Below, in pieces: positions 40,790 through 43,666 of a stretch of DNA of 64,000 nucleotides. Both the position numbers and the translations under genes were made by a program. This DNA is from a virus. A model generated the notes under the pieces. That model saw nothing but the letters and a program-made list of their open reading frames with translations, was not told where the DNA came from and did not search any database. Location of the stretch: positions 8,020-72,019 of the IMG/VR virus record IMGVR_UViG_3300022602_000075, one strand, 5' to 3'. The stretch's first letter is position 1, and the number at the start of each line of letters is the position of its first letter.

Positions 40790-43666
40790 ATGAATCTCAA
40801 AGAACTCCATTCCTTCAAAATGTCAGATGCGGTCAAGTTTCACGACCAGCTAAATCCATCTCTTTTTCACGGGCAGCACTTAAACCCTGTAATTAGAAAA
40901 AAACTGTTAGCAATAGCAGAAGACTTTTTGAACAATTTAGGAGTCAGTCCATTTAAAGTCAAAGATGTTACCATGTCAGGGTCTAATGCTGCATATTCTT
41001 ACACCCCGCATAGTGATATCGACTTGCACGTTATCGTAGACATGGATCAATTTAACAATGATGAGGTTTATCAAGAACTATTCAATGCTAAAAAGACAGT
41101 CTATAATGATAAGCACGACATAACAATAAAAGACATTCCAGTAGAATTGTATGTTCAGCCGGCAAGTGATCCGCATGTGTCATTGGGCGAATACAGTATA
41201 ATGAATGATCACTGGATAAAATTCCCACTAAAGCGCAGGGCAAACTTTGATCAAAACAATACTAGAGCCAAGTATCAACAACTAAAAAGTTTTTGTGAAC
41301 TTGCACTAAAAGAACGAGACCTTAAAAGAGTCAGCAAGGTACTAAAAAAGATAAAGCAATATCGTAAAGCAGGTTTGGCTAACTTTGGTGAATTCGGGCC
41401 TGAAAACTTAGCATACAAGATGGTAAAGAATCAAGGATACTTGCAAAAGTTATATGACTTGCGAGACAAGTTGCATAGTGCAAAACTAAGTTTTGAAAAC
41501 ATGTATCAGAATCCTGAAACTATCAAAGAAACAATAGGCCCGCATGAAAAAAAAGAATTAAAATTAATGTTACATGGGGATAAGCCTGCTGCTATCATAG
41601 ATTATACCGATTTAAATGAAAAAGTATGGCAGAACGCCATACAGAAAAATAATTGGACAGTAGAAACTATAGACATGAGCAAAATACCTCCACGAAAAGG
41701 TAGTATTTGGGCTAGCACTGCTCCAATGATTATAGTTAGTAAAGACCCTAATGTGGCTAAAAGTATAAAACGACTGATGCTTGCTACTTTAGGAAGTCCC
41801 GATGAGGCTCCGGCATCATATCATGTTCAATTAGGCAGATTGCTAGGTTACAGTGAAGCAGATATCCAACACTTTTTAAAACACGTTGGATATAAAACTG
41901 ATATTTCAGAAGAGACTGCTCCTAAAGAAAAAGTGTTCTATCATGTTACGACTACAGATAATGTTCCTCGAATAAAGAAGAAAGGTATTTTACCATTACA
42001 GCCTAGTAACTGGGTGCAAGCAGGCACAGGGGAACGTTACGGCGGTGGTGAAATATTTGCGTTTGACAATCTTCCCGACGCTCAAAGTTGGGCGGGTAAA
42101 ATGGATTGGGAATTACACAAGAAACTGGGCACCGGCAAAATATCAATCGTTAAGTTCACTGATGATAACGATTGGGAAAAAGATACTGCGCCAATGGTTG
42201 CTTATAAAGGCAATGCGTTAAAGAGACATGGCAGAGTTAAGCCAGAGAATATAATAGATGCAGTACCTTTGACTTCTGATGCACTTAGAAAATTAACCTC
42301 ATCTAATACTATAACAGAAGAACGAACTACCTTACAAAAAATGTACGGTAATAAGTTGCCTGAACGTGATGAAATATTTTGGAATTATGTTTCTACTAGA
42401 GATTTAAAAAAGCCATTAGTCATCAAAACTATGCCTAAGCATAAAGTAAAGATACATTTGCTTGGTCAATACCGTGTTGAACATATTGATGATTTAGTAG
42501 ACCGTTTAGACGATGAACAGATGGATACCTTTACTCACTATGTTAGTGATCCTGATTTATCAGATGAAGTAATTGTAATCGATGATAATAAAATCATCGA
42601 TGGACAACATCGTGCGCTAGCAGCCGCAGTTAGAAATGTACCTATCAAGTATGTAGACTTATCAGACCCGTTAGATGATTCATCAGAGCCGTTAGATGAA
42701 GTTACTATAGACAATGTTAAAGGATGGGGAGCAGTACCTCATAATCAAGATGTAGACTATTTTGGGTTGCGAGTTAAAATGCGACCAAGTATATTCTTGA
42801 AATTAGCAGCACCTACCCATACTGAACCTGATGAAGAAATGACAAATCATATAAAGTCTGGTGGTGCGATTGGTGCACCTTTTCTTTATGTTCTGATGCC
42901 CGAAGACTGGGAGAAAGGTGATTATAGCATGGCGGCTAGAATTGGTGGTCATGAAGGCAGACACCGCATGAAAACTATCTTAAAGCATGAAGGTGACGAT
43001 CCTGTAGAAGTTCACTTGTTCCCTATGAGCGGTTACAGAAGCAGACACTTAACTTCTGAAATTATCGATAACTGGAACAAAGGTTTGTATGCTGAAAAGA
43101 GTCGTGTAGTAGTACCTGGACCACTGTTTAGTGTGTCTGGTAATACACAGAACGTGACAGAAGCCTCGGAAGATATTCCAAAAATTGTATATCATGTAAC
43201 TCCCACTAAAAATATAAAATCGATCGCCAAAGAAGGTTTAAAACCCGGCATAGGAGACAGATCAAATAAAATAATGAGAGAAAAATCTGGAATCTATGTA
43301 TTTCCTAGTAGGCTGGCAGCAGAAGATGCAGTGATGAATTGGTTAGGTGATGAATTCGAAGATGAACCACTCACGATGCTAAAGATAGATACCTCTGGAT
43401 TGGAAGATCACATTTCCAAAGGTGCAGGATATGAATTGATAATTGACACTATTATTGAACCTAATAGGATAAAGAAAGTCAACATATCACTTGAAGAAGC
43501 CTCAGGCTACATTCCCAGTTATGCCCAAAGAAACGACCCCAGATACAAAACCGCCTTGACATTGGATGTCCATCCTGATACAATGCGTAAGAATGCTAAA
43601 CGATTTGGAAACAAAATCAGTAGAGCAGGAATTCCCCCAACAGCGAGACCAGACGGGAAAGTATAA
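40790..43666 (+). CDS. Multi-module protein: Pol-beta-type nucleotidyltransferase, two ART/Tpt1-like and two ParB-like modules
   Basis: SGSN..SDIDLH; YHVT..IKKKGILP and YHVT..IAKEGLKP; IIDGQHRALAA and GHEGRHR. Confidence 0.75.
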   Translation: MNLKELHSFKMSDAVKFHDQLNPSLFHGQHLNPVIRKKLLAIAEDFLNNLGVSPFKVKDVTMSGSNAAYSYTPHSDIDLHVIVDMDQFNNDEVYQELFNAKKTVYNDKHDITIKDIPVELYVQPASDPHVSLGEYSIMNDHWIKFPLKRRANFDQNNTRAKYQQLKSFCELALKERDLKRVSKVLKKIKQYRKAGLANFGEFGPENLAYKMVKNQGYLQKLYDLRDKLHSAKLSFENMYQNPETIKETIGPHEKKELKLMLHGDKPAAIIDYTDLNEKVWQNAIQKNNWTVETIDMSKIPPRKGSIWASTAPMIIVSKDPNVAKSIKRLMLATLGSPDEAPASYHVQLGRLLGYSEADIQHFLKHVGYKTDISEETAPKEKVFYHVTTTDNVPRIKKKGILPLQPSNWVQAGTGERYGGGEIFAFDNLPDAQSWAGKMDWELHKKLGTGKISIVKFTDDNDWEKDTAPMVAYKGNALKRHGRVKPENIIDAVPLTSDALRKLTSSNTITEERTTLQKMYGNKLPERDEIFWNYVSTRDLKKPLVIKTMPKHKVKIHLLGQYRVEHIDDLVDRLDDEQMDTFTHYVSDPDLSDEVIVIDDNKIIDGQHRALAAAVRNVPIKYVDLSDPLDDSSEPLDEVTIDNVKGWGAVPHNQDVDYFGLRVKMRPSIFLKLAAPTHTEPDEEMTNHIKSGGAIGAPFLYVLMPEDWEKGDYSMAARIGGHEGRHRMKTILKHEGDDPVEVHLFPMSGYRSRHLTSEIIDNWNKGLYAEKSRVVVPGPLFSVSGNTQNVTEASEDIPKIVYHVTPTKNIKSIAKEGLKPGIGDRSNKIMREKSGIYVFPSRLAAEDAVMNWLGDEFEDEPLTMLKIDTSGLEDHISKGAGYELIIDTIIEPNRIKKVNISLEEASGYIPSYAQRNDPRYKTALTLDVHPDTMRKNAKRFGNKISRAGIPPTARPDGKV

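Follow-up and report, generated by a model that had tools for sequence, protein, structure and literature searches.

The prohead protease gp21 of bacteriophage T4 cuts after glutamate in short motifs with few other determinants (PMC5694885; PMC9026906), and it takes off the 10-20-residue N-terminal capsid-targeting sequence (CTS) propeptides of the internal proteins (PMC5694885). Within the CTS, residues 4 and 7 have been linked to targeting and residues 8 and 10 to processing (PMC9026906). The ADP-ribosyltransferase (ART) Alt is cut by gp21 at both ends, at ITE-6 and LTE-619 (PMC5694885), and is packaged and injected (PMC5512222). Here we analyze a 958-codon open reading frame (ORF; its product is termed P0001) in a 64,000-nucleotide stretch of viral DNA, which we refer to as the window (positions 8020-72019 of the 72,019-base IMG/VR contig IMGVR_UViG_3300022602_000075, about 21% complete by CheckV). 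P0001 is probably a polyprotein that is loaded into the head, where a prohead protease cuts it into individual enzymes for injection; its joints would also serve as points of exchange. Statements drawn from papers cited by PMC number refer to the parts of these papers that were available to us.

Polyvalent proteins carry disparate catalytic domains in one chain, among them ART, GNAT, nucleotidyltransferase (NTase), ParB and deaminase domains, and are predicted to be delivered together with DNA (Iyer, Burroughs, Anand, de Souza and Aravind, 2017; PMC5512222). Their processing is ascribed to an embedded zincin-like metallopeptidase or, rarely, to a C-terminal assemblin-like domain; in the available text, Pol-beta NTases are reported only from the type found in conjugative elements, and the Alt-type proteins of T4 are not counted as genuine members (PMC5512222). 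Like these proteins, P0001 combines at least two disparate catalytic domains, the mark by which the class is recognized (a putative NTase, a Tpt1/KptA-like ART and a ParB/Srx-like fold), and relatives of P0001 carry the ART-PolyVal domain itself. Unlike them, neither P0001 nor its modules show an embedded peptidase in Pfam scans (E ≤ 1); the joints resemble targets of a trans-acting protease, and the Pol-beta NTase head belongs to a phage. A further parallel is provided by the inner-body and ejection proteins of the giant phages phiKZ and SPN3US, which a gp21-related protease (gp175/gp245) cuts after glutamate in a three-residue motif, some of them at several sites, with fragments kept in the head as ejection proteins (PMC5694885). 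There, however, the motif is S/A/G-x-E or A-x-E, the propeptides exceed 100 amino acids, and the account, as far as it was available, does not describe enzyme-module cassettes shuffled between genomes (PMC5694885).

The closest likeness is to the T4 proteins IPI, IPII, IPIII and Alt, with which the family shares short leaders near MKTYQEFIAE/A or MELITE/L (here and below, the slash follows the glutamate), a predicted cut after hydrophobic-x-Glu, and hypervariable cargo behind a conserved targeting signal (PMC3012670; PMC9026906). As in Alt, the cargo includes an ADP-ribosyltransferase, and the loss by Alt of an N-terminal and a 63-residue C-terminal propeptide (PMC5694885) can be compared with the 55-residue tail that follows LEE-903 in P0001. 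The T4 proteins, however, consist of one leader and one cargo, whereas members of the polyprotein family can hold six or more modules with internal sites, framed by a conserved NTase head and tail; moreover, the ART of Alt is of the R-S-E kind, while those of the polyprotein are of the H-type Tpt1/PARP kind (PMC5512222). The polyprotein is a variant on these T4 internal proteins, its closest working model, and on the polyvalent proteins, the closest described class. A full-text literature search, whose coverage did not extend to subscription journals and supplements, found no description of an effector polyprotein matured through a CTS or a prohead protease. Polymorphic toxins of the Rhs/CDI type possess a conserved delivery part and exchangeable C-terminal modules, and viral polyproteins are single translation products cut into several working proteins. 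The former, however, are delivered by a secretion system whereas the route proposed here is the capsid, and, unlike in viral polyproteins, the proposed protease is a separate head-maturation enzyme outside the polyprotein.

As originally predicted, P0001 is an intact ORF composed of an NTase-like head (NT), a module of unnamed type (U1), a first ART-like module (ART1), two ParB-like modules (ParB1 and ParB2), a second ART-like module (ART2) and a C-terminal peptide (Table 1). All six junction strings named in that prediction end at the nucleotides claimed for them: IKE at residue 247 (nucleotide 41530), ISEE at 375 (41914), ITEE at 511 (42322), LDE at 637 (42700), VTE at 791 (43162) and LEE at 903 (43498), with E247, E374, E510, E637, E791 and E903 as the residues preceding the predicted cuts. 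Homology recovered the module boundaries independently. An exhaustive HMMER search with residues 249-958 against 1.84 billion representatives (E ≤ 0.001) gave 2454 matches, whose best stretches correspond to residues 249-370, 382-510, 507-638, 633-783 and 788-958 of P0001. We defined breakpoints as positions at which the homology of two proteins stops inside both in an all-against-all BLAST comparison of 263 stored relatives; high-scoring segment pairs shorter than 50 amino acids or below 35% identity, and clusters with fewer than three supporting pairs, were dropped. The best-supported breakpoints in P0001 fall at residues 241, 508, 635, 789 and 900 (106, 21, 77, 143 and 99 pairs, respectively), each 2-6 residues from the nearest [LIVMF]-x-E motif, at 247, 510, 637, 791 and 903.

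The same association holds across the family. The 1385 breakpoint clusters, drawn from 255 proteins, fall within two residues of an [LIVMF]-x-E motif in 36% of cases, compared with 10% for random positions, and the median distance to the motif is 5 residues versus 17 for random positions in the same proteins. When only breakpoints with a support of at least five are considered, 751 of 1043 have the motif within eight residues (29% of random positions). Residue preferences at the junctions were derived from 440 sites, near-duplicates having been removed, and contrasted with 1121 non-junction sites: L, I or V occupies P3 in 90% (which follows from the motif's definition), P2 is small or polar, P1 is glutamate, and S or A occupies P1' at 34% of the junction sites; at the other sites, S makes up 8% and A falls outside the six commonest residues. 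A count anchored on the tail motif, and hence free of BLAST end effects, found [LIVMF]-x-E ahead of SGY[IL]P in all but one of 90 distinct contexts. In their sequence, the junctions look like sites of the T4 gp21 type. The structural models predict the joints to be exposed and disordered, with predicted local distance difference test (pLDDT) values below 50 at the ...NVTE end of ParB2 (model residues 150-154) and at the VTE/AS and LEE/ASG joints of ART2 (model residues 1-9 and 118-123).

Exchange of cargo at these joints is apparent from the relatives. A search with the whole protein gave 1146 relatives (E ≤ 0.001) among 7793 candidates from a word-indexed metagenomic collection. In the 120 of these 1146 matches that were listed, the first ~240 residues are about 45-65% identical and most of the proteins have the last ~55 in common, while the middle differs; its modules are seen solo, in other orders and in other numbers. 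About 99 architecture strings and 90 cargo clusters occur among 125 NT-headed relatives, rough counts from a crude automatic segmentation whose single-linkage clustering lumped short segments into one 337-member cluster and separated ART1 from ART2. Pfam scans of 29 relatives added ART-PolyVal, PARP-like, GNAT, dCMP/cytidine deaminase, NUDIX, ParB_N, GIY-YIG, GGACT/AIG2, Peptidase_M48 (P0018), DUF5661 and DUF6934 to the cargo repertoire. ART-PolyVal passes its cutoff of 31.2 bits in relatives P0037 (57.4), P0061 (52.5) and P0212 (322.9), and was not found in P0001 itself by the same type of scan. The metagenomic protein P0212 (3238 amino acids), in which ART-PolyVal matches six stretches (323 bits) and GNAT, PARP-like and Tpt1-like domains are matched as well, represents an extreme of the same modularity.

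A fixed architecture among orthologs, which would have spoken against the original prediction, was not seen: in the loci L001, L002 and L005 the order hydroxylase-like gene, polyprotein, 90-codon ORF, MoxR and VWA genes is common, and the polyprotein in this slot carries different cargo. At the DNA level, identity between the window and L002 is about 45% up to position 43152, jumps to 85-100% with the 30-nucleotide bin 43153-43182, which holds the VTE/AS codons and has 25 of 30 positions identical, remains at about 96% through ART2, and from about 43543 onward drops to about 72%, as in the NT domain. This 390-nucleotide patch of ~96% identity against a ~72% background, which starts in the VTE/AS bin, is a recombination patch that begins at the junction and ends within the conserved first part of the tail. 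Relatives P0007-P0016 are 87-92% identical to P0001 over residues 780-957 and 46-53% over residues 1-402. Together, the breakpoint counts and the identity jump in L002 bear out the predicted gain and loss of modules at hydrophobic-x-E joints. Less can be made of two short DNA repeats reported at the junctions, both of which are present where they had been placed. The tandem duplication CCGTTAGATGA is non-random, as its two copies were reached in 0 of 100 shuffles; GAAGCCTC, at 43160 and 43496, is marginal (4 copies in the window versus 0.91 expected; 4 copies reached in 1 of 100 shuffles), and we discarded this weak signal as evidence of recombination because it merely reflects identical codons for E-A-S at the two sites.

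Relatives that start with ART1, ART2, ParB1 or ParB2 carry, directly before the module, leaders such as MRAKEFINE/S, MRATEFITE/V, MKINEILE/T and MLITELFDLTE/V; leader length is 9-12 residues. Among the 175 family proteins that start with M and have no NT head, 53 match the pattern M-[KRLQ]-x-x-[EDQKH]-hydrophobic-hydrophobic...E, compared with 0.3 expected when residues 2-16 are shuffled. According to the T4 record, the corresponding N-termini of that phage read MKTYQEFIAE/A (IPII and IPIII), MKTFKEF...ITE/A (IPI), MAKINELLRE/S (gp24), MELITE/LFDE (Alt) and MNEPQLLIE/T (gp21). Judged by length, pattern and the terminal hydrophobic-x-E, the predicted family leaders resemble the T4 CTS. Standalone forms of ParB2 (149-171 amino acids) bear such leaders. 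Glutamate stands exactly two residues ahead of the IDN anchor of this module at 27 of 39 leaders and at 54 of 69 internal junctions; the predicted cut would therefore free the same mature ParB2 from a solo gene and from a polyprotein.

An identical glutamate spacing in leaders and junctions is, however, also expected if the joint motifs are scars of fused CTS-leader genes, or recombination linkers that are never cut, in a polyvalent protein that is packaged and injected intact. Unprocessed delivery has been described for the N4 virion RNA polymerase and for ArdC/TraC1 polyvalent proteins (PMC5512222), and the identity boundary at the VTE/AS junction attests to recombination at that point, not to proteolysis. 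Yet an unselected scar should decay, whereas P3 and P1 are kept while P2 and the flanks vary over hundreds of unrelated contexts. The predicted disorder of the joints does not sit well with an uncut chain either: gp21 needs little beyond a short motif (PMC9026906), so that cleavage is to be expected wherever such a site is exposed in a prohead that contains an active T4-type protease. We consider delivery of an intact protein rather unlikely.

Processing of the polyprotein in the head would require a matching protease. Both near-complete records with an NT-headed polyprotein (G001 and G002) encode Peptidase_S77, the gp21 family, together with Gp23, as does G004; neither was found in G005 or in four fragmentary records (G003 and G006-G008). 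In the complete relative G002, whose protease and scaffold are encoded at 285722-286357 and 284612-285709, respectively, hydrophobic-x-E sites are present in the major capsid protein propeptide (LLE-7, LLE-19, ILE-34 and LAE-43/SSAG) and at the N-terminus of the protease (MALYLKE/H). This genome possesses nine genes with CTS-like leaders; four lie in the 8 kb that follow its polyprotein gene (113642-115951; Table 1), a cluster reminiscent of the variable internal-protein loci of T-even phages. A near-consensus leader is found in the window as well, on a 127-codon ORF at 51437-51820 that is predicted to be a second head-targeted cargo gene of this phage. In the cultured jumbo Ralstonia phage RsoM2USA, ORF385 combines the leader MQTFKQFLSE/D with ParB2 and is located two annotated genes from the major capsid gene. 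Of the original prediction, all that computation could examine was borne out: variable architecture and exchange at the joints agree with its cassette-like character, and the leaders, with Peptidase_S77 and Gp23 in relatives, tie the family to the capsid more strongly than had been foreseen. Presence in virions, cleavage at the joints and injection remain predictions.

An ATAAATA motif is positioned directly ahead of the polyprotein start codon (Table 1). In place of the exact T4 late promoter TATAAATA, we used the looser pattern ATAAATA-N3-9-ATG. ORFs of at least 50 codons start at 8 of its 10 occurrences within the window and at 22 of 36 in G002, compared with about 20% of all ATGs. The genes so marked include the polyprotein gene (in the window and in G002), a baseplate wedge-like gene (at 11350) and leader-bearing genes, and a Shine-Dalgarno sequence is seen at few of the marked starts. 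Among 12 loci of relatives, only 3 have TATAAATA in the 400 nucleotides ahead of the gene unit, and sigma-70-like sites do not exceed shuffled controls (19 versus 16.9). Because the spacing to the ATG is very short and a gp55-like sigma factor is encoded in the window, it is a reasonable inference that a T4-late-like promoter gives the polyprotein gene late transcripts in which the leader is minimal or missing. The "late" of the original prediction thus has a motif to its credit, with a putative promoter function.

The start signal that the polyprotein gene shares with a baseplate gene also bears on the possibility that P0001 is a cytoplasmic, non-packaged multi-enzyme protein, engaged for instance in nucleic-acid modification or anti-defense, whose leaders and joints are merely initiation context or flexible acidic linkers. 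Its immediate neighbors are indeed not head genes (tmRNA, hydroxylase-like, MoxR, VWA), and the NT domain exists in the phage collection as a cargo-free standalone protein of ~230 amino acids. Against this, the leaders match the T4 CTS and precede four unrelated module types, which fits a common targeting signal better than a domain feature, and relatives bear ART-PolyVal, which was described from proteins whose delivery together with DNA is predicted (PMC5512222). Collectively, these arguments render a purely cytoplasmic role distinctly improbable. Processing by another protease, either the neighboring DUF2201 putative metallopeptidase-VWA/MoxR system, whose genes lie 0.4-2.9 kb downstream and show conserved synteny with the polyprotein gene across L001, L002 and L005, or a host enzyme after injection, would agree with the metallopeptidases favored for polyvalent proteins (Iyer et al., 2017; PMC5512222), but it deserves very little credence, as MoxR/VWA adjoins the polyprotein in only 3 of 15 NT-bearing loci compared (flanks of ~6 kb), DUF2201 has no known specificity, and gp21-type serine proteases are known to cut after the glutamate of hydrophobic-x-E (PMC5694885; PMC9026906).

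Several observations nevertheless weigh against a polyprotein that is packaged and processed in the head. P0001 contains 17 [LIVMF]-x-E sites in 958 residues, 11 of which are within modules; therefore, the motif alone is not specific. No such motif lies within eight residues of 292 of the 1043 well-supported breakpoints, the one ahead of SGYIP might equally be assigned to the conserved C-terminal peptide module, and the joint after the NT head has a site within 32 residues in 42 of 62 distinct tails versus 44% of random windows, a modest excess. The N-terminus of P0001, MNLKE/LHSF, is only partly leader-like: LKE-5 is present, the consensus is not matched, and position 5 varies in the family, so that targeting may depend on the head domain, on the first dozen residues or on the tail. 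Neither Peptidase_S77 nor Gp23 nor any head gene is present on the contig of the window, given its ~21% completeness; the protease is therefore postulated from relatives with 55-60% identity in the NT domain, and it was not found in G005 (94% complete), which has an ART2-like module only. Proteomics of RsoM2USA, the only data of this type for a cultured carrier of a module, based on 10 gel bands and too shallow to bear on packaging, did not report ORF385. Finally, the window shows no enrichment of TATAAATA (5 copies versus 7.5 expected).

The identity of the modules was assessed from profiles and models. The NTase label of the head is supported by an NTP_transf_2 match just above its cutoff (21.2 versus 21 bits with the domain alone, a marginal pass) and by the alignment of its G-S...D-x-D signature with the DrrA motif (E 0.16); G64, S65, D76 and D78 are invariant in an alignment of 14 sequences with 75% mean column identity. 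The head also matches phrog_36119 (E 6e-37) and SidM_N (E 7e-4), and among solved sequences it comes nearest, if weakly, to the DrrA/SidM AMPylation domain and to a putative NTase. For ART2, the 18 top Foldseek entries are KptA/Tpt1 proteins (E 2e-5 to 3e-3, probability 1.00; 22-26% identity for E 2e-5 to 1e-3), followed by other ART enzymes. With a model core at pLDDT ~75-85 and an invariant histidine in YHVT, ART2 is modeled as an ART fold closest to Tpt1/KptA, in line with the label given to it; PTS_2-RNA scores 23.2 bits against a cutoff of 26 with the whole protein (E 7.8e-5, 33 residues) and 15.9 bits with the module alone. ART1 by itself has no Pfam match, and a sequence-profile search of the PDB returned only noise, mostly in flanking columns. 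Its ART label is upheld by the homolog P0123, which has a PARP catalytic-domain match of 30 bits (cutoff 26.7), and by an hhalign match of ART1 to ART2 (86%, E 4.6e-6) over 45 columns in the region of the catalytic histidine.

The two ParB-like labels fared unequally. ParB2, the commonest cargo module, has an invariant H-x-G-R-x-R and an AlphaFold2 model at pLDDT 93. Its top Foldseek matches, nearly all ParB/Srx folds (ParB-CDP, sulfiredoxin, Noc, KorB and Osa), are weak (E 0.08-1), as are the VIA-align scores against ParB/Srx folds (Z ≤ 5.3); there is no Pfam family, and the PDB sequence-profile search gave no match at E ≤ 1. The label of ParB2 is hence moderately supported. For ParB1 there are weak leads: an invariant IIDGxHRALAAA of the DGxHR type, a weak match to the ParB-like phrog_12305 (E 0.0055), and a viral Atlas cluster, flagged as weak by the tool, in which 44% of the members carry ParB_N (score 0.93). 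Seven members yielded no Pfam family, and the PDB sequence-profile search again gave noise only, mostly in flanking columns. A 99% hhalign match between ParB1 and ParB2 was rejected as an artefact, as P0125 in the ParB1 alignment contributes a flanking ParB2 and the aligned columns are those.

U1 has no Pfam assignment, and an Atlas look-up gave unnamed clusters only; it is also present behind a CTS-like leader in P0135. A basic peptide of ~50 residues (GKGPGRPGDS...ARWQ.NMRRG.KK) lies between leader and U1 in this protein (residues 9-70) and recurs at the C-terminal end of P0189. The C-terminal peptide of P0001 is basic (pI 10.4), predicted to be disordered (pLDDT ~50) and kept across the family; its motif lies within 70 residues of the C-terminus in 106 of 132 occurrences. 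The description of the cargo as nucleotide-modifying enzymes, part of the original prediction, derives from predicted folds and names putative activities.

In the route that we propose, a conserved NTase head, five exchangeable modules and a basic disordered tail of 55 residues, connected by short linkers that are predicted to be exposed, each with [LIVMF]-x-E, would be synthesized late and enter the prohead core in the manner of T4 Alt and the internal proteins. A gp21-type (Peptidase_S77) prohead protease would cleave after each junction glutamate, yielding about six proteins of 12-29 kDa and a 6-kDa basic peptide, which would remain in the head and pass into the cell with the DNA. There, nucleic acids and proteins of the host or the phage may be their targets, in takeover or counter-defense, with ADP-ribosylation, NTP-dependent nicking or NTPase activity, and nucleotidylation as candidate activities. 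Recombination in the junction codons and the conserved flanks would create new cargo sets, and a single targeting and processing "grammar" would make any combination of modules loadable. More tentatively, it is possible that a large uncultured clade of T4-related jumbo phages practices programmable cargo loading of this kind, in which each joint is both a protease site and a recombination point, so that a stoichiometric kit of injected effectors can be re-assorted and modules shuttle between solo genes with a CTS leader and polyproteins. Such a system could be the capsid-delivered counterpart of polymorphic toxins and the first phage effector polyprotein matured by the head protease.

The carrier of the polyprotein is an uncultured jumbo T4-related myovirus whose kinship to T4 is distant. 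PHROG scans of 29 ORFs gave the gene content of a T4-related myovirus (Table 1); the closest cultured phages, as judged by a baseplate wedge protein, are Phosso, Atu_ph07 and Rak2-type jumbo phages with ~30-32% identity, and a megablast search of the phage collection with positions 38000-48000 found no near-identical DNA. On its 5' side, the polyprotein ORF is preceded by an HNH/NUMOD3 homing endonuclease gene, a tmRNA gene and a small hydroxylase-like ORF; on its 3' side, it is followed by a 90-codon ORF and the genes for a MoxR-type ATPase and a DUF2201 metallopeptidase-VWA protein, a pair that adjoins the polyprotein gene in the three closest loci (L001, L002 and L005). The tag peptide of the tmRNA reads ANDSVYALAA according to ARAGORN, and a terminator-like hairpin (40301-40326) marks the end of the gene. 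Because the tmRNA gene and this hairpin occupy the stretch, the TTG at 40276 is an unlikely start for the following ORF and the ATG at 40342 a better one. The betaproteobacterial type of the tmRNA hints at the host group and agrees with the occurrence of a common module in a Ralstonia phage.

Three further features of the window deserve mention. A single ORF of 6,282 codons between the baseplate wedge gene and more virion-protein genes probably encodes a giant fiber or adhesin. The PHROG terminase matches to the 939-codon large terminase ORF are split into two stretches, which suggests an inserted element, an intein or an endonuclease domain. Three homing-endonuclease-like genes of HNH/NUMOD3 types are present in the 64 kb, two of which flank the neighborhood of the polyprotein.

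Table 1. Features of the window and, in the last four lines, leader-bearing genes of the complete relative G002 (L034-L052). Module counts refer to the 263 stored relatives at a module coverage of 60%.
Feature	Position (nt)	Strand	Relatives (of 263)	Description
Polyprotein ORF (P0001)	40790-43666	+		958 aa plus stop; ATG start; intact
NT module	40790-41530	+	125	aa 1-247; putative Pol-beta-fold nucleotidyltransferase, conserved head of the family; ends ...ETIKE/T
U1 module	41531-41911	+	10	aa 248-374; ends ...DISE/E
ART1 module	41912-42319	+	11	aa 375-510; H-type ADP-ribosyltransferase-like, YHVT motif; ends ...TITE/E
ParB1 module	42320-42700	+	25	aa 511-637; IIDGQHRALAAA motif; ParB/Srx-like by weak leads; ends ...EPLDE/V
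ParB2 module	42701-43162	+	120	aa 638-791; divergent ParB/Srx-like fold, predicted; ends ...QNVTE/A
ART2 module	43163-43498	+	83	aa 792-903; Tpt1/KptA-like ADP-ribosyltransferase fold, predicted; ends ...ISLEE/A
C-terminal peptide	43499-43663	+	141	aa 904-958; ASGYIPS...NDPRYKTALT...SRAGIPP...GKV
Tandem 11-nt duplication CCGTTAGATGA	42668-42699	+		Copies at 42668 and 42689; ParB1-ParB2 linker; encodes PLDD..PLDE
ATAAATA motif	40779-40785	+		4 nt before the polyprotein ATG; candidate T4-late-type promoter core
ATAAATA-N3-9-ATG gene starts	11350, 34147, 39379, 39609, 40342, 40790, 51437	+		
ATAAATA-N3-9-ATG gene start	50025	-		
127-aa ORF	51437-51820	+		Near-consensus CTS-like leader MRAREFISE/G; GATAAATA-N5-ATG start signal as at the polyprotein; no Pfam family
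gp55-like late sigma factor	1579-2496	-		PHROG
Baseplate hub and wedge genes	7394-15268			PHROG
6,282-aa ORF	15280-34128	+		Probable giant fiber or adhesin
Phage tmRNA gene	40031-40324	+		Rfam beta_tmRNA, 136 bits (gathering score 84), E 2e-41
MoxR-type AAA ATPase and DUF2201_N metallopeptidase/VWA-like protein	44048-46516	+		phrog_1297, E 3e-98 (ATPase); E 3e-40 (DUF2201_N); 0.4-2.9 kb downstream of the polyprotein
Large terminase	53236-56055	+		939-aa ORF; PHROG
gp32-like single-stranded DNA-binding protein, UvsX, UvsY	59798-63470			PHROG
Homing-endonuclease-like gene	2-1564	-		
Homing-endonuclease-like gene	39609-40070	+		
Homing-endonuclease-like gene	46467-47093	-		
G002 leader gene	116001-117098			MKINQIIVE
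G002 leader gene	121024-121704			MRAFEFLGE
G002 leader gene	121701-122252			MRAEEFLFE
G002 leader gene	122249-123442			MRATEFITE

If the proposed route is correct, it would join the T4 CTS/gp21 pathway, known from a handful of single proteins, to the polyvalent proteins, whose processing has been ascribed to embedded peptidases. A simple sequence rule, a hydrophobic-x-E leader or junction combined with an SGYIP tail, would then find injected effectors in metagenomic jumbo phages, and U1, DUF5661 and DUF6934 would become candidate early effectors. The resulting catalog would comprise dozens of enzyme modules that are likely directed against host defenses or serve takeover of the cell, among them Tpt1/KptA-like ARTs that may modify nucleic-acid ends. 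The polyprotein would also represent a natural design for loading several proteins in a fixed ratio into T4-type capsids, of relevance to the T4 packaging platforms considered in reviews.

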